64,000 bases of DNA from Alphaproteobacteria bacterium (GTDB taxonomy: Bacteria; Pseudomonadota; Alphaproteobacteria; CAAHEQ01; UBA3637), in assembly GCA_017412085.1 (NCBI GenBank), contig JAFPYS010000017.1:2969-66968 (forward strand), read 5' to 3'. The notes under the pieces are model-generated. The model searched no databases. It saw nothing but the letters and a program-made list of their open reading frames with translations, and was not told where the DNA came from. The translations under genes and the position numbers were made by a program. How positions within the stretch are numbered: position 1 is the first letter of the stretch; the number at the start of each line of letters is the position of its first letter. Positions 406 through 50,575 of this stretch are shown one piece after another.

Positions 406-2898
406 TTAGGCGATGATTTTTTGGACAAGCTCGGTTGTTTGTGCGGATAACTTTTGCGCCAACAAATCCTTTAACACCTGTTCAGCGTGAGCGCGGCGGA
501 ACGCATCCATCTTTTTATAAATGCTAAACGCTTGTACCAAACGAGCGGCCATATGTGGATTGACTTTATCCAATTTGGCCACATAATCAGCTAACAGATG
601 ATATCCATCTTCTTGATGAAAAGCCGGCATATTCATACAGAATACTCCCAAAACAGCTCGAACCCGATTTGGATTTAACAGGTCAAATTTTGGATGTTTC
701 AAAAGTTTTTTTACCACATCAATGGTTTCTGTTTTGGGCGTGCTTGCTTGAACAGAAAACCAACGATTTAATGCCAAATCATCTTTTTCATATTTAATGA
801 AAAAATCCGCCAAAGCGTCTGTTTTGTGGGGTAAATTGTTATGCACCAGCGTGACCAGGGCTTCAATTAAATCGGTAAAATTATCTGCGTGTTTATATTG
901 TGTCCAAGCCCGATCGTCATCATTGGTCAGAGCCAAATAAGACAGTGCGACATTTTTTAATGCGCGTTTGTTCGCTTGTTCTGGTACAGGCGCATAAGGT
1001 TCGTGCACGATATTACTTTCATAAATTCGAGCCAATTTATCGTGATAAGTTGTGGCAATGGCTTTGCGGACGGCAGCACGTTTATGCATTACCTTTTCCA
1101 GGTCAACAGTTGTCAGGGTATTTGTAATTTCCGACAGTGTTGGTAATTGCAGCGCCGCCGCCACAAAAGCGGGATGCTTTGAGTCATTTAAATAAGCCTC
1201 AACAATATCTAATAACTCGGTGGGGATATCTTTGTCATATTGCACCATATCAACCAGCGTATCCAGCAAGTATTGATGTCCAACGCGATGACGATTGAAC
1301 AAATCGGAATCATATTTAATCAAGTGCAATTTTTCGTTTTGTGTGTACTTAATTTCTAAATCTACAAGTGCAGAAAAATGACGATTGATGGATAAAACGG
1401 GTTCTTGAGCAACATCAAAGGACCAATCTTGTCGTGGTTTGTCCAAAATCAACGTATCGGTTAATATATCTTTTCCGTCGGGCCCAACAAGACCGAAGGC
1501 CAAAGGAATAACAAAAGGATCGTTGGTGCGTTTGTGGGATTGCTCCGCGTGAATTGTGAACACATGATCGCCGTAATGCGTTTGAACCAAAACTTTCGGT
1601 CGTCCAGGAATATGATACCATTGACAAAATTGTGTTAAATCCACACCGCTTGCATCTTCAATGGCACGCACAAAATCTTGAATTGTAACCGCTTGTCCAT
1701 CATGACGTTTGAAATAGAGAGCACATCCTTTCATAAAATTTTTGCGCCCCACTACTTCGCGCATCATACGAATAACCTCCGCTCCCTTTTCATAGATGGT
1801 GTCCGTGTAAAAATTATCCACAGACTCGGCTTCATCTAATAAAACAGGATGCGCTAAAGGTCCGTCATCTTCAACGAATTGAGAAGCACGTAACAAGTCT
1901 ACATCTTCGATGCGGCCCATTTCTTTTGTGCGAACGTCAGCGCCAAATTCAGTGTGACGGAAAACAGTAAAGCCTTCTTTTAAGGATAGATGAAACCAGT
2001 CGCGCAAAGTGACGCGATCGCCGCTGTAATTGTGAAAATATTCATGCCCAACGGTTGTTTCAATGGCAGCATAGGTCCAATCTGTTGCGGTCATAGGGCT
2101 GGCCAACAATAAAGAATCATTGAAGATATTCAACGACTTATTTTCCATGGCGCCGGCATTAAAATGAGATACGGCAACAATGGAAAAACGATTAAGATCA
2201 TATTCTAAACCAAAAGTGTCCTCATCCCATTTCATTGCTCTTTTTAGTGATTCCATGGCAAAGGTTAAACGCTCTTTTTTTCCGGGCTCGCAGTAAAGAT
2301 ATAAGTCAACTTTTTTGCCGGATTTTGTGGTATAGGTGTCAGTCAGGACATCCAACTTTCCCGCAACCAAAGCGAACAGATAACATGGTTTGGGGTAAGG
2401 ATCATGATAGATAATGGAAGTAGAATTTTCTTTAACTACATTCCCATTGGACAAGCGAACAGGATACGTTTTTTGATTGGCCTTAATCGTGACGGTATAA
2501 GTGCTTAAAACATCGGGATGATCTGGGTAATAGGTGATGCGACGAAAACCTTGAGGTTCATTTTGTGTTGTAAACAAACCGTTGGACATATAAAGTCCCG
2601 CCAAACAAGTATTATCTTTTGGATTGATTTCAACGATTGTTTTAAGGCTAAAATTTTTCTTTTTAGGGGCCAGCGTCAAGGTCCCTTTTCCTTGTTTATA
2701 TTCACAAGGCTTTTCATCCAATAAGACCTCTTTTAAAGTTAAGTCGATTCCATCCAGGATAAGAGGCTTGTCCGTTTGATAATCTTCAAAGTGAAGTGTA
2801 GCCTCCACAAGAGTCTTTGTGGGATTGAGTGTAAAGGTTAACTCAGTCTTTGGTAGTCGATAATGCGGCGCAATATAATCATCACGATGGAAAGTCAT
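406..2898 (-). CDS. pepN: Aminopeptidase N (M1 family)
   Basis: 830 aa with a GAMEN exopeptidase motif (NAGAMENKSL) and the zinc motif HEYFHNYSG...x18...E (HExxH-E). Confidence 0.93.
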   Translation of the reverse strand: MTFHRDDYIAPHYRLPKTELTFTLNPTKTLVEATLHFEDYQTDKPLILDGIDLTLKEVLLDEKPCEYKQGKGTLTLAPKKKNFSLKTIVEINPKDNTCLAGLYMSNGLFTTQNEPQGFRRITYYPDHPDVLSTYTVTIKANQKTYPVRLSNGNVVKENSTSIIYHDPYPKPCYLFALVAGKLDVLTDTYTTKSGKKVDLYLYCEPGKKERLTFAMESLKRAMKWDEDTFGLEYDLNRFSIVAVSHFNAGAMENKSLNIFNDSLLLASPMTATDWTYAAIETTVGHEYFHNYSGDRVTLRDWFHLSLKEGFTVFRHTEFGADVRTKEMGRIEDVDLLRASQFVEDDGPLAHPVLLDEAESVDNFYTDTIYEKGAEVIRMMREVVGRKNFMKGCALYFKRHDGQAVTIQDFVRAIEDASGVDLTQFCQWYHIPGRPKVLVQTHYGDHVFTIHAEQSHKRTNDPFVIPLAFGLVGPDGKDILTDTLILDKPRQDWSFDVAQEPVLSINRHFSALVDLEIKYTQNEKLHLIKYDSDLFNRHRVGHQYLLDTLVDMVQYDKDIPTELLDIVEAYLNDSKHPAFVAAALQLPTLSEITNTLTTVDLEKVMHKRAAVRKAIATTYHDKLARIYESNIVHEPYAPVPEQANKRALKNVALSYLALTNDDDRAWTQYKHADNFTDLIEALVTLVHNNLPHKTDALADFFIKYEKDDLALNRWFSVQASTPKTETIDVVKKLLKHPKFDLLNPNRVRAVLGVFCMNMPAFHQEDGYHLLADYVAKLDKVNPHMAARLVQAFSIYKKMDAFRRAHAEQVLKDLLAQKLSAQTTELVQKIIA

Positions 2899-3398
2899 TT
2901 GTGCCGTCTAATCCTTTTCATCCAATAAGCATGTTTATCTGGGTCGATATCTCGATAAATATTAGCCAAGCTTTTCATGGCATTTAAGTGGCCCTGTCTG
3001 GCCGCAGCTTCATACATAGGAAGGACCAAATCCTGGCTTGAAGCACCAAAATATTTGCGTTCAGCCCAAACGGCCATTACATATTGTGCATCGGCCAAGT
3101 TAGCTTGTTCTGCTTTTTGAAGCCAATAAATGGCGCGTTCTCTGTTTTCAGGAACACGATCTCCCACATCATACAGCAAGGCCAATTTATAGGCGGCTTC
3201 CATGTCGCCATTTTGTGCTTTAGCCAATAAGTCTTGTTCGACAATTGGACCACACCTAACATAATCTGGATGATGAACGTCCACTTCGCCAGAAAGACAA
3301 CGTCTTGGTTCAACGACTTGACGAACATAAACAACAGCTGCAACAGCAATAACAGAAAGGATAATGAGGAACAAGAATAATTTTTTCAAAATACGCAT
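2895..3398 (-). CDS. Membrane-anchored Sel1-repeat (SLR/TPR-like) protein
   Basis: Start chosen at MRILKKLFLFLIILSVIAVAAVVYV, with GGAG 8 nt upstream. Sel1-like repeats are present (AAYKLALLYDVGDRVPENRERAIYWLQKAEQANLADAQY...). Its stop overlaps the pepN start (ATGA). Confidence 0.8.
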   Translation of the reverse strand: MRILKKLFLFLIILSVIAVAAVVYVRQVVEPRRCLSGEVDVHHPDYVRCGPIVEQDLLAKAQNGDMEAAYKLALLYDVGDRVPENRERAIYWLQKAEQANLADAQYVMAVWAERKYFGASSQDLVLPMYEAAARQGHLNAMKSLANIYRDIDPDKHAYWMKRIRRHK

Positions 3399-3732
3399 TT
3401 TTACTCCTTTACAACTCCTCAACAATTTTATAATATAAAGGATATTTACAAAAATCAAGAAAAAATGTAAAGTTTTTGTTTTTGATTTAAAACCGACATA
3501 AATGTCCGTTTTTGTTGCAGGGTAAAAGGGGGAAGTGTAAAAATGATAAAAAATGTAAATTATATAATATAATCAATAAATAAGACAAAAAAATGACGAA
3601 ATTTTAAAAATCAACAAAAACCTGTTGACTTTAAAGGGACGTTTATGTATGTTGGAAAAGTAGTCTGAAAAAGTTTGTTAACAAAGGCGGGGAGGAGGAC
3701 TACATCCTCCCTTGCATTTGAAAGGAATTAAA

Positions 3733-5330: not shown

Positions 5331-5359
5331 TTGACAAAAAAGCGTTTTTATGCTACAAT
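5331..5359 (+). promoter_or_regulatory. Near-consensus sigma70 promoter
   Basis: TTGACA (5331-5336), 17 nt spacer, TACAAT (5354-5359). The TTG used as ORF start in the track is the -35 box. Confidence 0.65.
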
Positions 5360-5387
5360 GGAGCCTATTGGCAACATAAGGAGCAAA

Positions 5388-6218
5388 ATGCGTAAAAATA
5401 CAATGAGAGACAATCTGATTTCTAATACAAATTTAGACAGACAAGATATTGATAATTTAGGGTCTGGTTTCCGTACACGTATGGACGCAGTTCGGCGCCA
5501 AATGCGCAAGTGGAACGAACGGGGTTACTCTTTCCGTCGCGTAATGAGCTGGGGTCAAGAAAAACACAACGACGAATCAAAACTTCCGATGCGTGAAGTC
5601 AAAAGGTTTTGGCGTGAAGTAGATTTGTTGAAAGGCGTTATTTTGTTGGCTGAATTTTGCAAAGCTAATGGATTAGATACTCAAAAGGAACTCGAAAAGA
5701 ATGTTATTGAAAATCGTCGCGAAGCCGCTTTAAATAGAATGCTTGAAAAATACGCTGAAGTAGGTGTCAGCTGTGAAATGCTTGAACCATTTTTATCATC
5801 CCAAAAGATGCTAGCCAGTGAATTGCCGCCCGAGGTATTGGATGGTGTCGGTGAACTAATTGCTAACCGTGCTGTGGGTAAAGTGCTTAAAAGACGTTGG
5901 ATGGAAGAGCATCCTGAAACCAATCGACGGAGGCTATCGTATTTGGAGGAAACAAGAACCCATCTTTATGCAAAGCTGATGCAGTCCGAAAACGCACATA
6001 AAATTTTGCCGACGCAAGAAAGAGCTATGCATTTAGAATACTGGGCTCTTGAAGCGCAAGTTAAGCGCGAAATGGCCGCTGCTGACTTGATGAAATTGCG
6101 CGAAAGGGTTAAAATATTAAAAAAACGAAAAGGCAAGACGTTTACCAATTGGGAAAGAAAGCACAAAAAACAAGAGGCTCCCGTGGTTTACGAAAGACGC
6201 AATATGTTTTTGTATTGA
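5388..6218 (+). CDS. Hypothetical protein, charged and probably helical, no recognisable family
   Basis: ATG at 5388 preceded by AAGGAG. 276 aa. A terminator follows. Confidence 0.6.
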   Translation: MRKNTMRDNLISNTNLDRQDIDNLGSGFRTRMDAVRRQMRKWNERGYSFRRVMSWGQEKHNDESKLPMREVKRFWREVDLLKGVILLAEFCKANGLDTQKELEKNVIENRREAALNRMLEKYAEVGVSCEMLEPFLSSQKMLASELPPEVLDGVGELIANRAVGKVLKRRWMEEHPETNRRRLSYLEETRTHLYAKLMQSENAHKILPTQERAMHLEYWALEAQVKREMAAADLMKLRERVKILKKRKGKTFTNWERKHKKQEAPVVYERRNMFLY

Positions 6219-9188: not shown

Positions 9189-10181
9189 ATGCGCATCCAA
9201 AATGAGAAAGAGAGTACACATTGGTATAGTGCTATTGTTAGAATGGAAAGCCGTGCAATTCCGGGGAGCTCCGACCGAGTTGAATTAAAACCTGTTTACG
9301 GCTATCGTCTAAGTTTTTTTGCAACCGGATGTACTCCAGATGAACGATTGTACGCTCAAAAAAAATGGGAAAATCGCGGTGTTAAAGGCGAATTAAAGGT
9401 AATGGATCACAGCGAAGAAGGATTGCCCAAAGGGGAATATTTCTTGGAAGTCTCTGATCCCAAAAGCATAGCGAATTTGGAAGCATATTTTTCCAGCGCT
9501 TATAAGATGGATTTAGATGTAAATCGCTTTACCGAATTGGCCGGAAAAAGCTTTCCAGTTCTCTCAACCCCAACAAAGGATATTTCTAACAAAATTGAAG
9601 AGCATACAGCGCTATATTACAAAGTACAACAAGATTGGGATGAGATTTTGTTACAAAACGGCAAAAGGGCATTACGCATTAATCTGGATAGGATGGCCGA
9701 AGAAGATGTCCACAAAATGATTGATCGTTTACGGGCTCTTGGGATAGATGAAAAATACCTAAAACCCCGAATTGCCACCGCGAATTCTGGACATGTAAAA
9801 GCTGGAGACAGAACGATTAGGATTCAAGGCGCCGCCAATCTAGAGCGGATGACTGTGTTATTCAATCATGCTCAAAGACCTAATGAGAAATGGGAATGGA
9901 GAAACTTAAACAATTGGCACACACAAAACGTAATGACTCCAGATGGAAAAAAACACCCCAGATTACTGTTTAATTTGGAAAATTTAACAGAAGTTCAACG
10001 TCAGCATATGCTAAGTGTGTTAGACGATTTATCTGTTGTTTATGAAGGGCACAAAAAAACAGAAGGATTTCCCTTCGAACACTTAACTGTAACAGGAAAG
10101 GAATCTGTTGAAGCGCTAAAAGAATTTACCAAACATTGGACGCGTTCAACCAATGGAAGAAACTTTAGTAGAGGAGAATAG
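9189..10181 (+). CDS. Hypothetical protein translationally coupled to gyrA
   Basis: The ATG follows the gyrA TAA directly (9186-9191). AAGGAGG lies at 9177-9183, inside the gyrA 3' end. 330 aa with no family recognised. Confidence 0.65.
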   Translation: MRIQNEKESTHWYSAIVRMESRAIPGSSDRVELKPVYGYRLSFFATGCTPDERLYAQKKWENRGVKGELKVMDHSEEGLPKGEYFLEVSDPKSIANLEAYFSSAYKMDLDVNRFTELAGKSFPVLSTPTKDISNKIEEHTALYYKVQQDWDEILLQNGKRALRINLDRMAEEDVHKMIDRLRALGIDEKYLKPRIATANSGHVKAGDRTIRIQGAANLERMTVLFNHAQRPNEKWEWRNLNNWHTQNVMTPDGKKHPRLLFNLENLTEVQRQHMLSVLDDLSVVYEGHKKTEGFPFEHLTVTGKESVEALKEFTKHWTRSTNGRNFSRGE

Positions 10182-10433: not shown

Positions 10434-10688
10434 TTATTCGGCCATTCCTAAAAGCTTTTTATATTCATCCCTTAAAAACTCTGTTTCGGCGCGATCGGCG
10501 GGATCCATCTTCCTAAGGCGCAACACTTGACGCATTACTTTGACATCAAATCCGGCCCCTTTTGCTTCGGCAAAAACCTCCCGAATATCTGCCGCCAATT
10601 CACTTTTTTCTTGTTCTAATCGCTCAATACGATCAATAAATGTGTTCAGCTTTCCCGCATCATTCGTGACGTTTTGTTCTTCAGACAT
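10434..10688 (-). CDS. gapR: DUF2312/UPF0335 nucleoid-associated protein (GapR family)
   Basis: 84 aa. L..FIDRIERLEQEKSELAADIREVFAEAKGAGFDVKVMRQVLRLRK closely resembles Caulobacter GapR. Confidence 0.85.
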   Translation of the reverse strand: MSEEQNVTNDAGKLNTFIDRIERLEQEKSELAADIREVFAEAKGAGFDVKVMRQVLRLRKMDPADRAETEFLRDEYKKLLGMAE

Positions 10689-10706
10689 TCTCTCCCCCTT
10701 TAATCT

Positions 10707-11234
10707 TTATTTTTTAATTGTCTTAACCGCAACGGCCACAGCTGCATTCAAATCTGTTTCGGAACACAACCCTAATGTTACCGGGTTGCGTGCTTGAATA
10801 TTGTGATAATTTTTGTGTGTCTTTTCACGAATCGCCACAATTGTCGGCTTCGTTGTTTTTAACAACTTAACAATCTGGGCATCAGACAATTCAGGATGGT
10901 TTTTAACCAGCCACAAAATACCGGATGGACGATCCAATCTTTTGGATTGAGACACATAACGAGATCCCTTGCTAAGCAACTTTTCAATCTCGGGATGCTC
11001 GGACAAGCACAACCCCATCTCGGGATTCGCCTCACAACGCTTAATTTCTTCCATTGTTAATTGTTCATTCGCAATCGGATCTAAGCCACGGATGTTTGTC
11101 GCCACATCGCCATCGGCAATTGCCTGAACTTCCAATGTGTGCATTCCACAAAAATCAGCAATCTGTTTAAACGTCAAACTTGTATTTTCAACCAACCAAA
11201 CGGCTGTTGCTTTGGGCATTAAAGGTAAAGTCAT
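10707..11234 (-). CDS. DUF1013 family protein, alphaproteobacterial; annotated in some databases as cell-cycle regulator TrcR
   Basis: MTLPLMPKATAVWLVENTSLTFKQIADFCGMH is the characteristic DUF1013 N-terminus. I prefer the ATG at 11234 over the GTG at 11243. Confidence 0.8.
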   Translation of the reverse strand: MTLPLMPKATAVWLVENTSLTFKQIADFCGMHTLEVQAIADGDVATNIRGLDPIANEQLTMEEIKRCEANPEMGLCLSEHPEIEKLLSKGSRYVSQSKRLDRPSGILWLVKNHPELSDAQIVKLLKTTKPTIVAIREKTHKNYHNIQARNPVTLGLCSETDLNAAVAVAVKTIKK

Positions 11235-11370
11235 TTTATACACCTTTCGTTAGGATTGAACTGGCCGCAGTATAGCTCTTTTACGCTTAAAAGTCAAGGA
11301 AAAATTATCTGCGTGACAAATCTTATTTAATATGTTATGCTAAAATCAGATTTAATAAAAAGGAGGAAAA

Positions 11371-11904
11371 ATGAAAAAAACACTTTTAGCTTTATTTGCT
11401 TTACTTGCTTGCTCTGCTGCCCACGCAGAATTTTATGTTGGTGCGGGTTATGGCCTGTCTGTCAATCATGGCTCAGTTATAGAAGACGGTTTTAAAACAA
11501 AATATAAAGATTCTGCGGCCTATTCTTTGTCCGGCGGACTTGTGATGCCACTTCCATTGTTTGATTTTCGCACAGAGTTGGAATACTTCCACACACGGCC
11601 TGAAACAAAATCTCTGGGCACAAAAAAATTGAATGCGGTTATGGTTAATGCCACCGGGGTTATTCCTTTGATTCCCTTTATCGATCCATACGTTGGAATG
11701 GGTGTCGGTTATGGACGCTATGACCACAACAATTCTTCAGCTTGGCAATTATTGGCTGGTGTTGAATACAACTTTTTATCAAACCCGTTTGTTATTGGTG
11801 CAGAATATCGCTTCTTTAACTTGACAGAAGACGGCGGAAAGGGGTCGGATAAATCCAAATATTCTACACACGGTGTAATGCTTAAGTTGAAATATACTTT
11901 TTAA
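11371..11904 (+). CDS. Small outer-membrane beta-barrel protein
   Basis: Signal peptide MKKTLLALFALLACSAAHA, alternating aromatic/Gly strands and a C-terminal ...LKLKYTF. AAGGAGG RBS. Confidence 0.75.
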   Translation: MKKTLLALFALLACSAAHAEFYVGAGYGLSVNHGSVIEDGFKTKYKDSAAYSLSGGLVMPLPLFDFRTELEYFHTRPETKSLGTKKLNAVMVNATGVIPLIPFIDPYVGMGVGYGRYDHNNSSAWQLLAGVEYNFLSNPFVIGAEYRFFNLTEDGGKGSDKSKYSTHGVMLKLKYTF

Positions 11905-12266
11905 GCTTTTAAGTTTTTATCAATTGTTGCAAAAAACGATGCGATTGCGATCGGTTTTGGGATGTAATCATCGCAACCTGCGTTCAGGGCTTTGTCTGCA
12001 TCTTGCTTTAATGCAAACGCAGAAACAGCTATAATTTTAGGCTGAGAAATAGAGCTCATTTTTCGGATTCGCTGAGTTACCTCCAATCCAGAAATCGTTG
12101 GCAATTGAATATCCATTAACACCAAATCCGGTTGCTTACTTTCTATCATTTTTAATGCAGAAGGTCCGTCGGTTGCCTCTAAAACAACATACCCTTTTGC
12201 GTTTAACAAATCCACAAAAAGACGACGATTCAGCTCATTATCTTCCACAACCAATATCGTGCTCAT
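11901..12266 (-). CDS. divK: Single-domain CheY-like response regulator, DivK-like
   Basis: ILVVEDNELNRRLFVDLLNAKGY...PDLVLMDIQLPTISGLEV...YIPKPI is very similar to Caulobacter DivK. Confidence 0.65.
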   Translation of the reverse strand: MSTILVVEDNELNRRLFVDLLNAKGYVVLEATDGPSALKMIESKQPDLVLMDIQLPTISGLEVTQRIRKMSSISQPKIIAVSAFALKQDADKALNAGCDDYIPKPIAIASFFATIDKNLKA

Positions 12267-13012
12267 TTTCTTTTCCTTCTGTGTCTGTCTTTTCCAAAAA
12301 ATTCTTCTTCAGAAACTTTTACTTCTTGCAATTGCCACTGTTCTTGGCGTGGAAAATGCGTCTTAATCATCTCATCTTTATCCGTGAAAAACCACGTATC
12401 TGTTACCATTCTATTCCTTGGTTCATATGTTTTTTTATTACGCATGCGTTTGCGCAATTCGGATTTATATCGCACGTTGCCATACACATCCGAAAAGACG
12501 GGTTTAGCAGTTTCTCCCAGCGCCCAGGTGGGATCCAAATATTCCCATGTATCCGCAATTTTAATAACCAGCCAACGGTGTCCAATATTCGCTTTTTTCT
12601 TGCGTGATTGATCCATATTGGTCCATCCATCCACTGCCTGTACATTCAGCCCTGCCCTCAAAGCCATTTCTTGATATAAATTGGCAATATCTTCACACAC
12701 GCCCACTCGCGTTTCCAGTATATGCCCCGACTCCGGTAACTGCGCCAAGCGTCCCTTTAACCGAGGATTTTCCAATAATTTGGCTTTGTATGCATCATAA
12801 TCTATATTTTGCACAATCCACGCATAAATAGACCGCGCTTTATCAATGTCATTATGATATGGCTTCGTTAAATATTCGACTAATACATTCATATCTTTTT
12901 CCGATTTTATTTGTGGCGCCTTAAATGCATAGGCATCAATTCCCTCATAGTTTACAGCAAAAACTGAGGTCGCCCAACAAAGCATAGCTAAAAAAAATAT
13001 AAAGCGTTTCAT
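12263..13012 (-). CDS. Secreted transglutaminase-like cysteine protease superfamily protein
   Basis: Start at MKRFIFFLAMLCWATSVFA (signal peptide). The core contains GVCEDIANLY...GHRWLVIKI...YLDPTW (Cys-His-Asp). Its stop overlaps the divK start (ATGA). Confidence 0.7.
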   Translation of the reverse strand: MKRFIFFLAMLCWATSVFAVNYEGIDAYAFKAPQIKSEKDMNVLVEYLTKPYHNDIDKARSIYAWIVQNIDYDAYKAKLLENPRLKGRLAQLPESGHILETRVGVCEDIANLYQEMALRAGLNVQAVDGWTNMDQSRKKKANIGHRWLVIKIADTWEYLDPTWALGETAKPVFSDVYGNVRYKSELRKRMRNKKTYEPRNRMVTDTWFFTDKDEMIKTHFPRQEQWQLQEVKVSEEEFFGKDRHRRKRK

Positions 13013-14036: not shown

Positions 14037-14984
14037 ATGAAAGTATGGATTTTAGCGGATGATCGCGCGGGTAATGTCAATCAATTATTGGGCATTGCCG
14101 AAGCATTGGGCCATCCTTATGAACGCAAGGACATTCGGTATAACAAATGGATTCGCTTGCCAAACTGGTTGCGCGGACGCACCTTTATTGGGTTAGATTC
14201 TAAGTACAAAAAAGATCTGCTTTCTCATTTTCCAGATGTTGTTTTAAGTGCCGGCCGGCGCAGTTTTCCGATTGCGAGAGCTATTAAGCGTTTAAGTAAA
14301 GGAAAAACAAAAATCGTACAGTTGATGAATCCTTTAAATGGTGCGAAAGATGCAGATTTAATCGTCTTACCCCTTCATGATAATTATAAAGGACATGCAA
14401 AAAATGTTATCCAGGTTCTTGGTACCCCTCATCGCATCACAGAAGCCCGCTTAAAAAAAGAAAAAGAAAAGTGGGCAAAAAAATTAGGGCAATTTCCTAA
14501 ACCTCGTGTTGCCTTATTAGTGGGCGGCACAACAAAAGGCAAAGAATTTACGATCGAAATGGGAAATGCTTTGATTCAATCTGTCACCGCGCTAAAGCCA
14601 GGCAGCGTAATTACAACAACATCACGTCGCACCCCCAAAAAAATTGTGGAATTATTACAAAAGAAATTGCCAAAAAATAAATTTTTCTATCGTTTTGGCG
14701 ATAAAGCAGAAAACCCCTATTTCGGATTATTGGCTTGGGCAGATATGATTGTGGTAACAGGCGATTCCATGTCCATGTGTTCGGAATGTTGCGGCACAAA
14801 CAAACCCGTTTACATTTTTACGCCGGAAGGGATGGTCAGCGAAAAGCACGCTCGTTTCCATAAATTACTGTATAAAGGCGGGTATGCCATGGATGCATTG
14901 AAGCCCGGCAAAATAAAACCCAAATACTTGAATCCAGCGCCAGATATCGCACAAAAGATACAAATGCTGGTACATTTAAACTGA
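14037..14984 (+). CDS. ELM1/DUF1022 family protein (mitochondrial fission ELM1-like)
   Basis: MKVWILADDRAGNVNQLLGIAEALG is the typical family N-terminus. 315 aa. The ATG abuts the upstream TAA. Confidence 0.8.
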   Translation: MKVWILADDRAGNVNQLLGIAEALGHPYERKDIRYNKWIRLPNWLRGRTFIGLDSKYKKDLLSHFPDVVLSAGRRSFPIARAIKRLSKGKTKIVQLMNPLNGAKDADLIVLPLHDNYKGHAKNVIQVLGTPHRITEARLKKEKEKWAKKLGQFPKPRVALLVGGTTKGKEFTIEMGNALIQSVTALKPGSVITTTSRRTPKKIVELLQKKLPKNKFFYRFGDKAENPYFGLLAWADMIVVTGDSMSMCSECCGTNKPVYIFTPEGMVSEKHARFHKLLYKGGYAMDALKPGKIKPKYLNPAPDIAQKIQMLVHLN

Positions 14985-28890: not shown

Positions 28891-28938
28891 CTTGCTTTTT
28901 TGTTTTTCAATTGCTACTATGATTTTATAGGAAACGTT

Positions 28939-29817
28939 ATGGTAATAAAACACATTTTATTTTTAGGATTAGCACTGTTGATTGGCGGAACTTTTACTCC
29001 CGCACAGGCGGAGTTGTATATCTGTCAAAAAGGGCGCTGCGATTATACGCCAGAGGATGCATCTATCCGTCCGTGGCTTCATAAACTATATGCTTTTTTC
29101 AAAACACCCGATGCACGCATAGATTTTTGCGAAGCCAATCCCAAAATACACTCCTGCTTGACAGATGGACTAAAATGGACGGCCCAATCTCCAGCGGCCA
29201 CTGTTAATTTTGCCATCCCCGTGGCTCGCACATTGCCACAAAAAAATACATTGTTGATGGATTATTTAGTGACAGCAAATGCCTTCATGCCTTCTTGCAG
29301 TTTCAGCACAACAACGTTTGAAGAGGCCGAGAACAAAACCGTGCGCATGGTGTCGCGTGCCTTTGAATGTCAAATGACGGGTATTTCAAAAATCAAATTA
29401 CAAAATACATTCTTTATTGATTTTATCGACTTTGATAACTCTGTCATTGGGGCACAATACACCATTCAAACACACGGCGAACTTGGTGGCAACTCTGCCG
29501 GTTATACTTTAATGAAATTCCGGGATGGAAATACATTGTTGCCGTTGGTGCCGCAACCGTATTATGGCGAAATGCCCGATGCGCCAGATGCCTATCAAGC
29601 AAAGAAGATGGCAGACACATTAAATACTCCACCTATCACAGAGGAGCCCAGCGCTTTCGATGGATTTGTAGGCGGCGTCAAAGATTGGTGGACAAAGTTG
29701 AAAGAATCCTTTAATTTAGATAAACCAAAACGCCGTTCTTCACATGAAGAACCCAGTTGGTGGAACAAATTTTCAGATACCTTTATGAAGGTTATCTATT
29801 TAGAGCCGTTGGAGTAA
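28939..29817 (+). CDS. Secreted hypothetical protein
   Basis: Signal peptide MVIKHILFLGLALLIGGTFTPAQA|E. Several spaced Cys. No family recognised. Confidence 0.6.
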   Translation: MVIKHILFLGLALLIGGTFTPAQAELYICQKGRCDYTPEDASIRPWLHKLYAFFKTPDARIDFCEANPKIHSCLTDGLKWTAQSPAATVNFAIPVARTLPQKNTLLMDYLVTANAFMPSCSFSTTTFEEAENKTVRMVSRAFECQMTGISKIKLQNTFFIDFIDFDNSVIGAQYTIQTHGELGGNSAGYTLMKFRDGNTLLPLVPQPYYGEMPDAPDAYQAKKMADTLNTPPITEEPSAFDGFVGGVKDWWTKLKESFNLDKPKRRSSHEEPSWWNKFSDTFMKVIYLEPLE

Positions 29818-31714: not shown

Positions 31715-34700
31715 TTAAGGGGTGTAACTTGTTTGCGTTGGCACAACTGTCACATTCTTTTTCGCACTATTCACACAAGCTACTATACATTTTTTACCAT
31801 TACCATTAGAGATTGAGAATGTACATTTATTTCCATCGCCCACAAAAGTAACGTCGTCATCACGGGTCATCTTTGTTGCGCGAGCGCAATCTTTTCCATC
31901 ACCCTGTCCATCTCCATCACAAGCTGTGTTTTGTTCGGGTGTCCGGCAATAATTGTTTGGATCGTTATCCGGATCGCTATCTCGTGTTTCTGAAATATTG
32001 GAACACCATTTCTTCGTTCTTATATAGCTTGTAGAATCACTCTTTTTTGGTAAAATCGATCCCTCACATGTAAACTGCGCCCAGTCCCCCGCAATAAGGT
32101 CTCCATCAAATTTCAACTTATATCTCATCCCATTAACCGTCGTAAAGCTGAACAAGTTTCGTGTTTGACACGCTTGTTTATTGCAATTCGTCGTGACGTT
32201 TGAAGCAATACTGCTGACTTTGGCATCAACACACCGGCCGTTAACAACACCGTATCCCGATTTACACACGCACTTACCATTGTTATAAGTCGAATTCGCA
32301 TCACATGTCACGCATTTCTTTTGGCTAACATCATAGGTTGGTTTGGTGGAATCCGCCTCCGCACAAGTCTTACATTGCCCGTTATGGCATACTGGCGTTG
32401 CTTGAGGACACTTGCCATCACCATTCTTTTTGGAAGAGTCGTAATTAGCACTGCACGTACAAGTACCATCCTTACATAATGGTTTTGTTGCCGCACATGT
32501 TGTGCCAGACGAAGCGCCGTTGTTTGCAGTGCATTCAAGACAGCGACCAGTCTGGGAATCATAATTTGGTCTTTTTGTTGGACATTTGCATATTTTTTCT
32601 CCATTGTCGGACAAACATTCCTTCTCTCCAATGCAATGGGAATTTTCCGCACACACAACACATTTTCCATCGCCACTTGTATTAGTAACAGCACCTCTTG
32701 AATCTTTTACCAACCCAACAGAACATACTCTTCTTCCTTGCTTTTGAAATTCTGTTTTGGCCTTTTGGCGCGGCGAATAATTGTATGGAGAATTATCTTC
32801 CGTGTGTCCACTTCTGTCTTTATCTTCCTGCTCCACCTTGTTACACCCAAAATCCGTCCACGAGCCTGATACCGAATTATAGCAATTTACACATTTATTG
32901 TGATAGATATCCCAAACTTTAGCACCGGGGCATTTACAATCACCCGTCTCTTTGTCATATTCATTTGCGCCACAGTTTCGACCACATTCTCCCGTTGTTA
33001 ATTGACAATACGGCTTGGCATCCAGCTTGCAATCTTGGCTAGATCTACACTCTGAACACAAAAGCGTGTTTCCCGTACCCAAAACACAGTATGGTTTTTG
33101 AACACCATTTTCTGTTACATTTTCACACCCATGATTGGAGTTTATTTCTTTCCCATCCTCAATACAGCGGACGCAGCTATAATTGTTCAGATCACATACC
33201 TTTCCTTCCGCGCAATGGCTATCCGCCAAACATTCATAGCACACGCCATCTTTATAATGTGGTGTGCTGCCGCTGCAACTGACGCAACCGTCATCTGTAC
33301 ATATCTTACTTTCGGCCGCACAACTTTCAGCCGTACATGCCACGCAACGATTTTCGCCAGAACTATTAATCTCACAATATGGTTTTAAGGCATCGCTGCA
33401 ATGTGCATTCGTCCAACAAGATGCACAAACCCCTTCTTCATTAGTGTATTGTCCGTTTAGACAGCCACAGTAACCATGAACCTGTGCTTCGGATATTTCT
33501 TCCAACACATCCTTTGTGTAATCTGTGATATGATAATCCCCATCTGAAATATCGCAGCAAACATATCCTGCGGGAATGTTGCTTGTTACGTCTTCAGCTT
33601 TCACTTTTTTAGGCACGGCTCCCGATGGACAACCACACGCACGGATGCCATTTGATACATCTTCATCGCTGTCCCCCATGCCATAGTATTGTCCACGATT
33701 ATTGTTGTCGCAACACACGGTTAAAGACAACCCGCTGGCATCACTATATGTTCTTACGCTATACCCCACCGGGCACACATTACAATGTTCCGGATCTACC
33801 ACATTATACTCTTCATCGTCCTCGCTCCACGCATATCCTGTTGTTTTGTTACAGCAAATACCATTTAAAACTTCTACAGTGTCGTCTCCGTCTTGCGGGC
33901 AGCTGTTACACACAGATGGATTAAAAATTCTTACCCATTCCGTTTCTTGTTGAATATATTCATACCCGCCTTCACAACAAACAAATCCGTCTTCCGTTTC
34001 AACCGGCTCTGCATCGTCAGGGCACTCAATACAGGGATCTTCTTGACATTGGTCGCCACACCAGTGTCCGCCCGCGGTCGTGCAGTCTCCGCTGTTTCCA
34101 CAGGCCTCTGGATGGGTTGCCGAACATGTGGCCACACATTGATCATCTGCATCAAAAGCATATCCATCTTGACATTCGCAATCGTTCCATTCTAAGCTTG
34201 CACCACCTGGTTGCAACAAACGATTTCGCGCACAACATCTGAGACTATTCGTAGTTGACTTATCACGCACCTTCCATGTTTCTCCGTTATATGTAAAGGT
34301 TGGAGGGCAAGCACACAATGCATCATCTGATTCAGATATTTCAACACCAGATCCATCTAAACGTGTTGCCACGCTTTTGTGTCCCGAACAACACGCCCAC
34401 TCTCCATTCTCATTTGTGTTAAACGAAGTAACATAACCCGGGCATCCGCATTGCGGCAACAATACATAACTTTCAAAATCAGAACCATCCGATTTTGCTG
34501 GATGACCGTCCGAATTACAACAAGTTTGAACAGATCCAAACTCAACCCACGATCCGCCTAATGTTGTGCAATCAACTGCTGTTACCCCTCTGGTCGCGGA
34601 CGCAGACAACATTTTAGGCGTAAAAAGAAGATCAGATTCCTCTTCCGCTGCCGCCTCTTCTTCCTGCATCATTTCTTCTTCGGGATCTGTCAAGGTGCCA

Positions 34701-34876
34701 TCCGGCTCAACAATGGGCGTTATTAAGGCGCGTTCTGTCACGGGTAAAGTTGTGTATATATCCTGTATGGAACCATCTTGCCCAATACGAAAGGCAATAG
34801 ATTCCACTTCCGCCATCGCAAAGCGAGGCGACAACAACCCCAAACAAGCCATTAAAATAACAATTTTTATGCGCAT
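31715..34876 (-). CDS. Very large secreted cysteine-rich repeat protein (1053 aa, about 99 Cys)
   Basis: Signal peptide, then an acidic linker. Six to seven CxCP...CC modules are followed by CxxC-x-[HD]C-type repeats. The C-terminal domain is Cys-poor and carries a TSP3-like Asp-rich motif. Confidence 0.8.
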   Translation of the reverse strand: MRIKIVILMACLGLLSPRFAMAEVESIAFRIGQDGSIQDIYTTLPVTERALITPIVEPDGTLTDPEEEMMQEEEAAAEEESDLLFTPKMLSASATRGVTAVDCTTLGGSWVEFGSVQTCCNSDGHPAKSDGSDFESYVLLPQCGCPGYVTSFNTNENGEWACCSGHKSVATRLDGSGVEISESDDALCACPPTFTYNGETWKVRDKSTTNSLRCCARNRLLQPGGASLEWNDCECQDGYAFDADDQCVATCSATHPEACGNSGDCTTAGGHWCGDQCQEDPCIECPDDAEPVETEDGFVCCEGGYEYIQQETEWVRIFNPSVCNSCPQDGDDTVEVLNGICCNKTTGYAWSEDDEEYNVVDPEHCNVCPVGYSVRTYSDASGLSLTVCCDNNNRGQYYGMGDSDEDVSNGIRACGCPSGAVPKKVKAEDVTSNIPAGYVCCDISDGDYHITDYTKDVLEEISEAQVHGYCGCLNGQYTNEEGVCASCWTNAHCSDALKPYCEINSSGENRCVACTAESCAAESKICTDDGCVSCSGSTPHYKDGVCYECLADSHCAEGKVCDLNNYSCVRCIEDGKEINSNHGCENVTENGVQKPYCVLGTGNTLLCSECRSSQDCKLDAKPYCQLTTGECGRNCGANEYDKETGDCKCPGAKVWDIYHNKCVNCYNSVSGSWTDFGCNKVEQEDKDRSGHTEDNSPYNYSPRQKAKTEFQKQGRRVCSVGLVKDSRGAVTNTSGDGKCVVCAENSHCIGEKECLSDNGEKICKCPTKRPNYDSQTGRCLECTANNGASSGTTCAATKPLCKDGTCTCSANYDSSKKNGDGKCPQATPVCHNGQCKTCAEADSTKPTYDVSQKKCVTCDANSTYNNGKCVCKSGYGVVNGRCVDAKVSSIASNVTTNCNKQACQTRNLFSFTTVNGMRYKLKFDGDLIAGDWAQFTCEGSILPKKSDSTSYIRTKKWCSNISETRDSDPDNDPNNYCRTPEQNTACDGDGQGDGKDCARATKMTRDDDVTFVGDGNKCTFSISNGNGKKCIVACVNSAKKNVTVVPTQTSYTP

Positions 34877-34882
34877 ACTTTT

Positions 34883-34910
34883 ATTTTAACAGAACAGACG
34901 CAAAATGCAA
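34883..34910 (-). promoter_or_regulatory. Candidate promoter giving a leaderless mRNA for the Cys-rich gene
   Basis: On the minus strand: TTGCAT (34910-34905), 16 nt spacer, TAAAAT (34888-34883), then 6 nt to the ATG at 34876. No SD. Confidence 0.35.
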
Positions 34911-34918
34911 CAAAAAAA

Positions 34919-36047: not shown

Positions 36048-37316
36048 TTATTCTCCCTTCAACCACTTACAAATAGTTTTGTATGTCGGCGTTTTACATT
36101 TTGGTCCCATAATCACCACGGTCGGCACCACAGAAAACATCTTTTTTGCCACACGCTTTACATCTTTTAATGTCACAGATTTGTATCCTTTTACCATTTC
36201 TTCTGGCTGGATTATTCGACCAAATGTACCTAATTGATCCGCCATATTTCTTGCCCCAGCAGATAAATTATCTTCCCCGGAAGCTAACCCGACCAAATAT
36301 TCTTTTTTGACACGATTTAATTCTTCTTCGGAAACATCCGACTGAACTTTTTGACATTCTTTACAAATTAACTCTAATACCTCCGTTGTGTCTTGGGGTT
36401 TATTTTTCACCGAAATGCCCCAAAACCCAAAGGTTGGATAAATATTCTTATGTGACCAAATAGAATATGCTAAGCCTCTGTCCTCACGAATTTTAAACCA
36501 CAAACGCGAACTTGATCCTGTCGCCAAAATACCCATCAATAGAGTTTTTGCGTAATAGTCTTTTTCAGCACTTCCCTCATAGGGGAAAACAACTGTTTGC
36601 CAAATTTGGCTTTGCTTTTCTTCTATTTTTTTCTTCAATCCGCTAGCCGCATCAAAATGGTATTTCTTCGTTTTTTGTTTCTTTTGTAAAAAGGTTGAAA
36701 ACTGTTTTTCACAAAGTGATACAAATTTTTGATGAGTAATTCCTCCCCGTGCCGCAAGAATAATTTTATCAGTTGTATATTCGTGGCGCCAATATTTTCT
36801 CAAATCATCAGCTTTCAATCCTTTAATAATTTTCTCTGTTCCAAGCCCATCTAATGCAAGGGGTGTATTAGGATAAATTGATTCCATTACAAACCGAAAA
36901 TATTTACGATTAATATTGTCGGGTGCTTGTTTAATTTCATTAATCACAACACCTTTTTCAATCTCAAATCCTTTTTCTTCAAAGGCGGGCCGTGTTAACA
37001 TATTTGAAAACAAACGACATCCTTTTTCTAAATCCGTTTTTAATACGTTAATATAATAGTCTGTAAAAACACCACCCGTGCCGCCATTATGATAAATCCC
37101 CAGGTCTGCAAATGCCTTGCGCAATTTTTCGGAATTCATTTCCTTGGTTCCACGAAACATCATGTGCTCAATAAAATGCGCAATCCCTTTTTGATTTAAT
37201 GGCTCATCTTTACTGCCTGTTTGCACATACATATCAACAGACACCATTTTAGCGCCCTTGCGCTCGTCCGTTAAAACACGAATGCCATTTTTAAGAGTTG
37301 TGAGTTTAATTGTCAC
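36048..37316 (-). CDS. M16 (pitrilysin/MPP-like) zinc peptidase encoded between oadA and oadB
   Basis: [10 protein letters not shown] plus EKGVVINEI. The GTG start abuts the oadA TAA, with GGAGG 5 nt upstream. Its stop lies 1 nt from the oadB ATG. Confidence 0.88.
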
Positions 37317-50090: not shown

Positions 50091-50561
50091 TTATTTAGAG
50101 GTTAATGTTAAACTTCCGTCGTCAGTAGACGTTACCGTCATGTTCGCATATGTCATATTTTTCAGACGCTGAACTGCTAAATACGGTAAACCAGAAATGG
50201 CAATTTCAAATTTTGAACAATCTCTGGCGGGACAAGGCGTAACATTTATTTGACTGCCAAAACGAGACACAAAGCACGCTGACGTAGAAGCACCACTGTT
50301 ACAAATTTGCAAATCAACCAAATCATTGCCCTGAATCGCCTGTTTAAAAGACGTTTCCGGATATCCGCCTGCATTCCAAGAAAACAGGTCAATAACTCCC
50401 TGAGAAAGTTCTTCCACATCATTAAAAGTTGCATTAATTTTATACATATCCACGCCAAAACCAATGCCCGCAATGGCGCCATACATAATCACACCCATGA
50501 TGGCCAAAACGCCCAGCATTTCCAGCATCGTACGGCCGGATTCATTTTTTGCTTTTGTCAT
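50091..50561 (-). CDS. Prepilin-type N-terminal domain protein, paralog of 3733-4101
   Basis: MTKAKNESG|RTMLEMLGVLAIMGVIMYG. GGAG lies 6 nt upstream of this ATG; the upstream ATG at 50567 directly abuts the GGAG. Confidence 0.7.
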   Translation of the reverse strand: MTKAKNESGRTMLEMLGVLAIMGVIMYGAIAGIGFGVDMYKINATFNDVEELSQGVIDLFSWNAGGYPETSFKQAIQGNDLVDLQICNSGASTSACFVSRFGSQINVTPCPARDCSKFEIAISGLPYLAVQRLKNMTYANMTVTSTDDGSLTLTSK

Positions 50562-50575
50562 TTTCATCTCCTTTT

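Follow-up and report, generated by a model that had tools for sequence, protein, structure and literature searches.

The stretch of DNA analysed here, referred to below as the window, is 64,000 nucleotides long and comes from contig JAFPYS010000017.1 (positions 2,969 to 66,968, forward strand) of the alphaproteobacterial assembly GCA_017412085.1. It contains an open reading frame (ORF) at 31715-34876 on the minus strand, stop codon included, which begins with ATG and encodes a protein of 1053 aa. This giant protein, with its gene and its family, is the subject of the present analysis. It contains 99 cysteines (9.4%), whereas the remaining window ORFs with 200 aa or more have a mean Cys content of 1.3%. 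A first-pass annotation made from the sequence alone had given the position, length and Cys count of the ORF correctly, including its conversions of residues to nucleotides. The protein is acidic (pI 4.57, ~111 kDa), and its sequence is that of GenBank entry MBQ3695975.1, 'hypothetical protein II938_03295 [Alphaproteobacteria bacterium]', which was derived from a metagenome-assembled genome (MAG).

The giant gene is flanked by housekeeping genes on both sides. On one side lie oadB, an M16 peptidase gene, oadA, a CitMHS transporter gene, a gene for GTP-dependent PEPCK, and rho. On the other side, rnhB is convergent with the giant ORF and lies one base from its stop codon. Beyond rnhB there are a second M16 peptidase gene, a secreted hypothetical gene, rsmE, and a response-regulator/SpoIIE phosphatase gene. 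The short gap that separates oadB from the giant ORF contains no terminator and no convincing promoter, and for this reason the giant gene is likely to be co-transcribed with oadB. A spacing of ~42 nt between the two genes is also found in orthologous loci. No obvious Shine-Dalgarno sequence precedes the giant ORF.

The codon usage of the giant gene is native. Its GC content at third codon positions (GC3) is 0.37, and that of its neighbours is 0.32-0.51; its correlation in relative synonymous codon usage (RSCU) is 0.77, within a range of 0.58-0.93 for the neighbours. The codons TGT and TGC are used in a 2:1 ratio, matching the rest of the window, and a locally higher GC content could be traced to codon position 2, in other words to amino-acid composition. 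Horizontal transfer from a eukaryote was considered and left no signal, as GC3, RSCU, and the choice of Cys codons are all native. The first-pass annotation had described the protein as eukaryote-like. A eukaryotic origin is unsupported, because the codons are native and the searches gave no homologue beyond the oadB-rnhB locus of this lineage.

How widespread is the giant protein? A word-indexed search of 5.8 billion clusters returned a single homologue, P0001 (1059 aa, 46% identity). Only P0001 was returned even with an eight-sequence profile, though the proteins P0002-P0009 sit in the same collection; their omission therefore reflects a limit in the sensitivity of the index for Cys-rich, fast-evolving proteins and not their absence. 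An exhaustive HMMER search of 1.84 billion representatives, run with a profile of residues 100-472 only and a threshold of E<=1e-3, found ten proteins. These were P0001, the full-length P0002, P0004, P0005, P0007, and P0009 (935-1135 aa), P0006 (872 aa), two N-terminal fragments, one of which is identical in sequence to the window protein, and a marginal match, P0010. The N-terminus of P0006 is cut by a run of N in the scaffold, and its apparent split is a scaffold gap. A metagenome scan with the most conserved motif of the family gave three loci and added a new member, L093, and a partial one, L094. Patterns tailored to the two closest proteins gave no match in a metagenome scan, and neither did poor N-terminal patterns in reference genomes. 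Each family cluster is a singleton seen on 1-5 contigs. Every member with a readable context sits between oadB and rnhB, with L094 readable on the upstream side only. It follows from this shared position that the members are positional orthologues and that the gene is single-copy in one narrow lineage. At least seven independent assemblies contain an intact orthologue (935-1135 aa), so the ORF is not a frameshifted pseudogene, an outcome that the first-pass annotation had considered. Together with the native codon usage, the intactness of the ORF in these assemblies indicates that the gene is native and maintained.

The N-terminus of the giant protein, MRIKIVILMACLGLLSPRFAMA followed by EV, shows the n-, h-, and c-regions of a type I signal peptide. 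The signal-peptide-like start was noted at first pass and is present; its junction, A-x-A/[DE]V (the slash marks the predicted cleavage site), is kept in all seven homologues with an intact N-terminus. The signal peptide is the sole hydrophobic segment of the protein, with a maximum 19-residue hydropathy of 0.83 elsewhere. Cys11, which lies within it, is not conserved, and there is consequently no conserved lipobox. The Cys-free segment that follows carries the pattern [DE]V.xIxFRFxxDGxIxDIxTxL...ALxxPIVEPDGxxTDPxEE. In conservation it ranks second within the family, and it is a candidate docking or anchoring element. Next comes an acidic low-complexity linker whose length varies from about 30 to >100 aa among orthologues. 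A short motif, [ED][ST]D[AL]LF[LT], is conserved within this otherwise unalignable linker (ESDLLFT in the window protein, residues 79-85, 34622-34642 on the minus strand; ETDALFL in P0002, P0006, and L093; MDKLFL in P0004), and could be a docking or processing site. The layout of the protein is given in the table.

Features of the giant gene and of the gap upstream of it (residues refer to the 1053-aa product, coordinates to the window)
Feature	Residues	Coordinates	Strand	Remarks
Intergenic gap, oadB stop codon to ORF start		34877..34918	(-)	42 nt, AT-rich
Predicted signal peptide	1-22	34811..34876	(-)	signal peptidase I (SPase I) cleavage after A-M-A; from sequence
Cys-free conserved N-terminal segment	23-66	34679..34810	(-)	45% mean pairwise identity
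Acidic low-complexity linker	67-100	34577..34678	(-)	23% identity, 56% gapped
CC modules 0-2	101-232	34181..34576	(-)	AlphaFold2 beta-hairpins, pLDDT 87-94
Eight-Cys insert between module blocks	233-281	34034..34180	(-)	from sequence
CC modules 3-6, four canonical	282-469	33470..34033	(-)	from sequence and AlphaFold2
Central CxxC repeats A, C-x2-C-x(3-5)-[HD]-C-x(5-7)-C	470-635	32972..33469	(-)	best TIGR04201 stretch 545-564
Most conserved core of the family	636-720	32717..32971	(-)	48% identity; 43% without Cys columns
Central repeats B	721-882	32231..32716	(-)	72% identity to closest homologue
C-terminal beta-rich domain	883-1053	31718..32230	(-)	10 Cys; one of three C-terminal types in the family

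The N-terminal half of the giant protein is built largely of a tandem module that ends in a vicinal CC doublet and is referred to here as the CC module. The first-pass annotation had counted six clear copies and one degenerate copy of a CxCP...CC pattern, and both figures stand. The pattern C-x(1,2)-C-P-x(8,26)-CC occurs six times, compared with 0.11 expected from composition-preserving shuffles (shuffle maximum 3), and the degenerate copy lies at C103...CC119/120. The plain counts of CC, CxC, and CxxC do not exceed the shuffle expectation (14 vs 9.1 for CxxC), which shows that the signal lies in the arrangement of the Cys and not in their density alone. The first block consists of the degenerate copy followed by two canonical ones (143-187 and 188-232). 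In the second block, each module forms a C-x(1,2)-C-P hairpin that ends in CC and is followed by a second, G-[YH]-x-[WY] hairpin. The insert between the two blocks varies in size and Cys number among orthologues, and its Cys number is always even. When every CC doublet was gathered together with its upstream CxC or CxxC, 54 canonical instances from 10 proteins aligned with four invariant Cys and a usually present Pro. The unit is 33-56 residues long, and its length and tandem arrangement are conserved across orthologues. Compact copies, for example CGCPEGGKLSQGECCKDGYAWNKTSYSAVNVPA, suggest the consensus C-G-C-P-x-G-G-x(6-20)-CC-x-[DG]-G-[YH]-x-[WY]-...-Y-....

An AlphaFold2 model of residues 98-475, made from an eight-sequence input, had a mean predicted local distance difference test score (pLDDT) of 82.8, with most modules at 82-94, and a predicted template modelling score (pTM) of 0.46. 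A low pTM beside a high pLDDT is as expected for an elongated, non-globular chain, which the region would be according to this model. Most canonical modules were modelled as two successive beta-hairpins, with the CC doublet in the second strand of the first hairpin.

Does the CC module belong to a known family? The first-pass annotation could not assign it, and the searches bear this out. No Pfam or NCBIfam model matches the N-terminal module region, and no sequence in the PDB matches the profile of this region or that of a single module. When PDB sequences were searched with the profiles of either half of the protein, of its central region, and of the single module, nothing meaningful came up, the matches being a chemerin fragment (E=0.5) and an antibody complementarity-determining region (E=1.8). 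At the level of fold, Foldseek gave a best E-value of 1.7e-3 with a TM of ~0.1 for the N-terminal model in the PDB and of 2.4e-2 in BFVD. These matches were rejected, as all were generic beta-repeat proteins and none was significant. Foldseek with the low-confidence model of the C-terminal half likewise gave no significant match and was not interpreted. PHROGs and PADLOC contain no match for the window protein, which is therefore not filed as phage- or defence-related. The module profile had no match in the collection of 5.8 billion clusters, where a single diverged module of ~40 residues could not reach significance in any case given the size of such databases. Outside close relatives the first-pass annotation had left the occurrence of the module to be looked up; nine of the ten proteins matched among the 1.84e9 representatives belong to the family, and the tenth is the marginal P0010. 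Based on these sequence and fold comparisons, the CC module appears to be a new domain. P0010 (577 aa) is the only match from outside the family (E=7.5e-4). It is made up of ~45-residue tandem repeats that are nearly perfect copies, VHLPVNETPLELSNNHGQIVNVGEIAYCCDDDGNTLNGHLAGRFESVSPP. In each of them a single vicinal CC precedes DG, as in the '...YCC-x-DG' end of the CC-module hairpin, and the protein is otherwise unrelated.

The CC modules give way to a second repeat type in the central region. The first-pass annotation had proposed two distinct types, and profile-profile comparison agrees, since hhalign gave a probability of only 2% for a relationship between the module and the central repeats; the idea that both are variants of one repeat was rejected on the same result. 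The existence of the second type is likewise borne out by its core pattern, C-x2-C-x(3,5)-[HD]-C, which occurs four times vs 0.24 expected from shuffles. There are four strict and several looser copies of the longer form C-x2-C-x(3-5)-[HD]-C-x(5-7)-C. To which family does this repeat belong? The NCBIfam model TIGR04201 (Myxo_Cys_RPT) matches residues 545-564 with 24.1 bits (E=2.7e-5), 0.9 bit short of the curated cutoff of 25, and these residues align to positions 1-20 of the 22 model positions. The model was matched in 7 of 8 family members. Two of them pass the cutoff (P0005 with 27.5 and P0007 with 29.8 bits), four others score 16.6-21.2 bits, and P0009 has no match. The family repeats also have the form that defines TIGR04201, namely tandem units of ~20-22 residues with three invariant and two less conserved Cys. 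At first pass the repeat had been likened to a Myxococcus cysteine-rich repeat and to several eukaryotic ones. The Myxococcus hint came close, the model being TIGR04201 and not TIGR02232. The EGF, furin-like, GCC2_GCC3, and VSP assignments are not supported, because no Pfam family matches the window protein at E<=10; among eight members, only two chance Pfam matches appeared at E<=1. In NCBIfam, TIGR04201 is the only match at E<=1, and there is no MYXO-CTERM, PEP-CTERM, or GlyGly-CTERM signal. Two segments fit C-x-C-x2-[GP]-[FYW]-x(4,8)-C, the pattern of the PROSITE EGF signatures, compared with 0.04 expected; CECQDGYAFDADDQC, in the insert between the CC-module blocks, is one that fits. A reading of C-x2-C-x4-H-C as a zinc knuckle was also tried and rejected, since the His is not conserved between orthologues.

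The most conserved region of the family lies within the central repeats. It contains the motif TGxCxCxGxxPVxxIxxxKCVxCYxSxxxxWTDxGC...YxP, and T644, G645, V654, V663, Y666, S668, W673, T674, D675, G677, Y700, and P702 are invariant. Additional CxxC repeats and CxCxxxY hairpins, including CVCKSGYGVVNGRC, follow in repeats B. The protein ends in a beta-rich domain with the C-terminus ...VTVVPTQTSYTP. This domain matches no Pfam or NCBIfam model, and the C-terminal half was modelled at a pLDDT of 50, that is, with low confidence. An acidic stretch within it, DSDPDNDPNNYC...CDGDGQGDGKDC (residues 966-996), had been likened at first pass to thrombospondin type-3 (TSP-3) calcium-binding repeats. This reading was dropped, as the TSP_3 hidden Markov model gives no match at E<=10 and the stretch is poorly conserved in the closest homologue: P0001 and P0004 have a shorter version of it, and P0005 and P0006 have a deletion in its place.

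The Cys scaffold is the most regular property of the family. Of the 99 window Cys, 97 align Cys-to-Cys with P0001 in spite of only 46% identity; the other two are Cys11 of the signal peptide and one that falls in an alignment gap. Cys content is 9.4-11% in all eight proteins, and the number of Cys in the mature protein, 90-112, is even in each of them, which indicates that Cys are gained and lost in pairs. The window protein is thus almost certainly fully disulfide-bonded, with a predicted ~49 disulfides. Bacterial proteins with so many predicted disulfides are rare. How would the disulfides be arranged? The first Cys of each N-terminal CC doublet has an even ordinal among the mature Cys in 8 of 8 proteins, and the rule holds even past inserts with 8-20 extra Cys. 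The simplest reading of this regularity would be a nearest-neighbour chain of disulfide-closed loops (1-2, 3-4, and so on), in which the adjacent Cys of each doublet would face opposite ways and close two successive hairpins, so that each doublet would be shared by two loops. The first unit contains C and CC, or three Cys, and in P0009 and L094 it contains C, CxC, and CC, or five. As the number is always odd, at least one disulfide must join neighbouring modules.

The giant protein has diverged far more than its neighbours, a behaviour typical of proteins for surface recognition or adhesion. Across 36 pairs of loci it is 33-52% identical, compared with 80-88% for RNase HII, 78-92% for the M16 peptidase, and 93-99% for OadB in the same pairs. 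In the pair L086/L090, for example, OadB is 99%, the M16 peptidase 89%, and the giant protein 41% identical. With proteins only 33-52% identical, synonymous sites are already too saturated for an estimate of dN/dS. Conservation is lowest in the acidic linker (23%), in the CC modules once their Cys are set aside (22-28%), and in the C-terminal domain (24%). Furthermore, members differ in how many CC doublets, and hence modules, they carry (5 to 8), and the family has three unrelated types of C-terminal domain. The window type (...TSYxP) is found in the window protein, P0001, P0004, P0005, P0006, and L094. P0002 and P0009 carry a second type (...KLKD or ...KFSD), and P0007 and L093 a third, Cys-rich one. 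The C-terminal types are distributed as a mosaic, since L094 combines a P0009-like core with a window-type C-terminus.

The carriers of the family are apparently Alphaproteobacteria of the ruminant gut. The best match of rnhB in reference genomes is 'uncultured Alphaproteobacteria bacterium Rumen_Coassembly_mag_2400' (86%, best tblastn segment), and several of the next matches are MAGs from yak, sheep, and rumen, and Rhodospirillales. This closest reference MAG (locus L003) has an rnhB 85% and an M16 gene 84% identical to those of the window by global alignment. It is as close to the window as gene-bearing genomes are, yet its synteny stops right after rnhB. No homologue of the giant protein is present in the 12 kb of L003 that were examined, where a 287-aa ORF, a 148-aa ORF, and the 3' end of an EF-Tu-like gene (10627-12355) replace the giant gene and oadB; in this genome the giant gene is either absent or located elsewhere. 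None of the 80 rnhB-anchored loci, L003 included, carries it. Three divergent versions of the family (L092-L094, JGI Ga0310690) coexist in the rumen dataset 3300033463 and presumably come from three related species or strains. This JGI dataset is from cow and sheep rumen and is listed as a metatranscriptome (PMC12149495). If truly RNA-derived, it would be evidence of expression. However, one of its contigs is 37 kb long, carries genes on both strands, and looks DNA-derived, and the dataset is for this reason not counted as evidence of transcription.

Other genes around the locus also deserve mention. An ORF of 422 aa lies between oadA and oadB (36048-37316, minus strand). ORFs at the same position are annotated as M16 peptidase in L086, L088, and L090, and L093 has one of 419 aa there. 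In L001 and L083, oadA directly abuts oadB, which points to an oad operon with a variable insertion. The two M16 genes of the lineage flank the oadB-giant-rnhB block. A hypothetical protein of 305 aa (28900-29817, plus strand) has a hydrophobic N-terminus and no Pfam match. It is syntenic in all related loci and 50-66% identical between them, with just 41% for the copy in L003. Apart from the giant gene, few genes of the block evolve faster, and rsmE (58-69%) is similar in this respect. Elsewhere in the window, three ORFs have no Pfam match at E<=1e-4: 5331-6218 (plus strand, 295 aa), 9189-10181 (plus strand, 330 aa), and 50091-50567 (minus strand, 158 aa). The window also contains alphaproteobacterial genes for TrcR (10707-11243) and an ELM1-like protein (14037-14984), a Sel1-repeat protein (2895-3458), and a small outer-membrane beta-barrel (11371-11904).

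What is the function of the giant protein? We place roughly even weight on the reading that it is a polymorphic surface adhesin or recognition receptor, which would work like TraA of Myxococcus xanthus or the yeast flocculins without being homologous to them. The first-pass annotation had suggested an adhesin or host-interaction factor. Its suggestion remains a reasonable inference, strengthened by the fast divergence and the domain swapping, with the qualification that the host need not be the partner, for which another microbe, a phage, or kin cells are equally conceivable. In the proposed mechanism, an acidic, disulfide-bonded protein specific to a narrow lineage would be exported via Sec. 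About seven two-hairpin CC modules, then about a dozen TIGR04201-like CxxC repeats, would form an elongated, rigid stalk. At its conserved N-terminal end the protein would be docked to the cell envelope, with the variable acidic spacer spanning surface layers. The stalk would project the variable parts, namely the surfaces of the CC modules and the exchangeable beta-rich C-terminal domain. These parts would bind a variable or diversity-selecting partner, such as glycans or proteins of host or microbial surfaces, kin cells, phage, or antibody. We infer the disulfide bonding, loop topology, surface exposure, N-terminal anchoring, and ligand binding of this scheme.

A more far-reaching version of the adhesin or receptor proposal holds that the CC modules are an undescribed disulfide-laddered beta-hairpin domain and that the protein is the specificity determinant of a lineage-specific, rapidly diversifying recognition system, independent of TraA, in which the C-terminal 'tips' set specificity. 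Such a system could serve the recognition of kin (greenbeard-type), of a partner, or of the host. We regard this version as a long shot worth stating.

Several observations weigh against an adhesin or receptor. No route across the outer membrane was found: there is no sorting tag, autotransporter barrel, lipobox, or adjacent secretion or partner gene, and the protein could be periplasmic by default. The crossing of the outer membrane is the weakest link of the proposal. No Dsb, secretion-system, or partner gene occurs in the window or in related loci, and the rumen is strongly reducing. The idea of a tip domain draws on sequence patterns, the C-terminal half being modelled at a pLDDT of 50. 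Finally, part of the divergence could reflect weak constraint on the loops of a structural protein and not diversifying selection.

The last point leads to the explanation that survives best among the rivals, in which the giant protein is a structural component of the envelope or matrix, for example a coat, a scaffold for biofilm, or a strut located in the periplasm or on the outer surface. It would then be a ligand-less rod whose loops drift freely. The pattern of conservation is consistent with such a rod, as good conservation is limited to the Cys scaffold, one core motif, and the N-terminal segment. Pfam searches detect no recognisable binding domain (PA14, lectin, or Ig), and the probable co-transcription with a housekeeping operon also fits. 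On the other hand, whole C-terminal domains have been exchanged between lineages and modules differ in number, which is typical of interaction surfaces and not of inert scaffolds. In addition, the gene is single-copy, few contigs carry it, and no self-assembly motif is apparent. A structural role is therefore considered unlikely, if still worth holding in mind.

Less probable again is a multi-headed inhibitor or decoy, either a string of Kazal- or antistasin-like protease inhibitors or a sink for antimicrobial peptides of the host or of protozoa, for phage receptor-binding proteins, or for antibodies. Tandem small Cys-rich modules with hypervariable loops would suit such a protein, and rapid evolution would fit an arms race. 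However, no similarity to an inhibitor family was seen in sequence or fold, PADLOC and PHROGs gave no match, and a decoy leaves the combination of conserved end, spacer, and exchangeable terminal domain unexplained. We would be surprised if this explanation were correct. A thiol or metal buffer, in which the Cys would be reduced or would bind metal or sulfide as in metallothionein or zinc-ribbon CxxC motifs in the anoxic rumen, is improbable to a still greater degree. It is suggested by the 14 CxxC motifs, by several C-x2-C-x4-H-C segments that superficially recall CCHC zinc knuckles, and by the reducing environment. Yet the CxxC motifs are not enriched over expectation, the His or Asp before the third Cys varies between orthologues (NAHC to DAFC, DSHC to NEDC), and the Cys counts are always even; moreover, the beta-hairpin model is confident and the protein is predicted to be exported, not cytoplasmic. 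An artefact of annotation or assembly, or a decaying gene, might be suspected from the 'hypothetical' label, the tiny family of singleton clusters, and the lack of an obvious Shine-Dalgarno sequence, but is effectively refuted by intact ORFs at the same position in assemblies from different studies, the scaffold gap that explains the split of P0006, the aligned Cys of the closest pair, the even Cys counts, and the native codons.

How does the proposed adhesin or receptor compare with known systems? TIGR04201 was built from nine Cys-rich repeats of TraA of M. xanthus, and the repeat was described in PMC3325183. A polymorphic receptor of the cell surface that serves outer-membrane exchange, TraA combines these repeats with a signal sequence, a PA14-like variable domain, and a MYXO-CTERM tag. 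Its authors propose that the repeats form a rigid stalk which displays the recognition domain (PMC3325183; PMC6372800). The window protein resembles TraA in its predicted type I signal peptide, in a long tract of ~20-residue Cys-rich C-x2-C-x(3-5)-[DH]-C repeats, for which its TIGR04201 match is borderline, in a variable region thought to be displayed by a stalk, and in a high diversity among alleles or orthologues. However, the differences are substantial. The window protein has no PA14-like domain (no Pfam match at E<=10, no relevant match at E<=1 in eight members, and no fold match). It has no MYXO-CTERM tag and no C-terminal hydrophobic segment, TIGR04201 being its only NCBIfam match. The gene traB, which encodes an outer-membrane barrel with TSP-3 repeats as well as an OmpA domain, is not adjacent, the neighbours being oadB and rnhB in every locus. 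The polarity is also reversed, with the conserved end of the window protein N-terminal and its exchangeable domain C-terminal. Moreover, the ~7 CC modules are missing from TraA, and the organisms differ, a rumen alphaproteobacterium as opposed to a myxobacterium. Without a PA14 domain, a MYXO-CTERM tag, or a traB neighbour, the window protein is not a TraA homologue. The resemblance is confined to the repeats and the overall design and may be convergent.

Eukaryotic Cys-rich repeats, including EGF, laminin EGF, TNFR or furin-like, Giardia VSP, and Dictyostelium Dicty_CTDC, share with the giant protein the principle of disulfide-stapled beta-hairpin units arranged in rods. Fold matches included Pfs25, EMR2 EGF, laminin LE, and viral TNFR-like proteins, none of them significant (E>=0.1). 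However, Pfam at E<=10 is empty and the PDB gives no significant match, and the vicinal CC doublet of the module is foreign to these repeats. Granulins (epithelins) come closer in one respect, as they contain repeated vicinal CC doublets and stacked, disulfide-held beta-hairpins, as in the CC modules. A granulin has four CC doublets per ~55 residues with arms of 5-8 residues, whereas a CC module has one CxC and one CC per 33-56 residues and longer arms, and Pfam gives no granulin match for the window protein. Yeast flocculins (Flo1/Flo5) are similar in functional design, with a signal sequence, a stalk of repeats, a binding domain that varies, and a polymorphic role in cell-cell recognition, and the authors of the TraA work drew the same analogy (PMC3325183). 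In contrast to the giant protein, flocculins have Ser/Thr-rich, glycosylated stalks that are not disulfide-rich, and they carry a GPI anchor; the sequences and folds are unrelated. We place the giant protein within a known kind, the surface protein with a Cys-rich stalk, in which it joins the apparently new CC module with TraA-type repeats.

A protein from the anaerobic gut, half of which is built of a module with no relative in sequence or fold, adds what appears to be a new domain to extracellular architecture, and its rigid, disulfide-locked modules may be of interest to protein engineers. Its fixed genomic position, extreme divergence, swapped ends, and coexisting variants form the pattern seen in molecules that decide who sticks to whom. 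If the giant protein is indeed a recognition receptor, it would be a second, independent design of a Cys-rich stalk plus a variable domain after TraA of Myxococcus. It would also offer an entry to the ecology of an uncultured lineage of the ruminant gut, namely its site of attachment, its partner, and the phage pressure on it.

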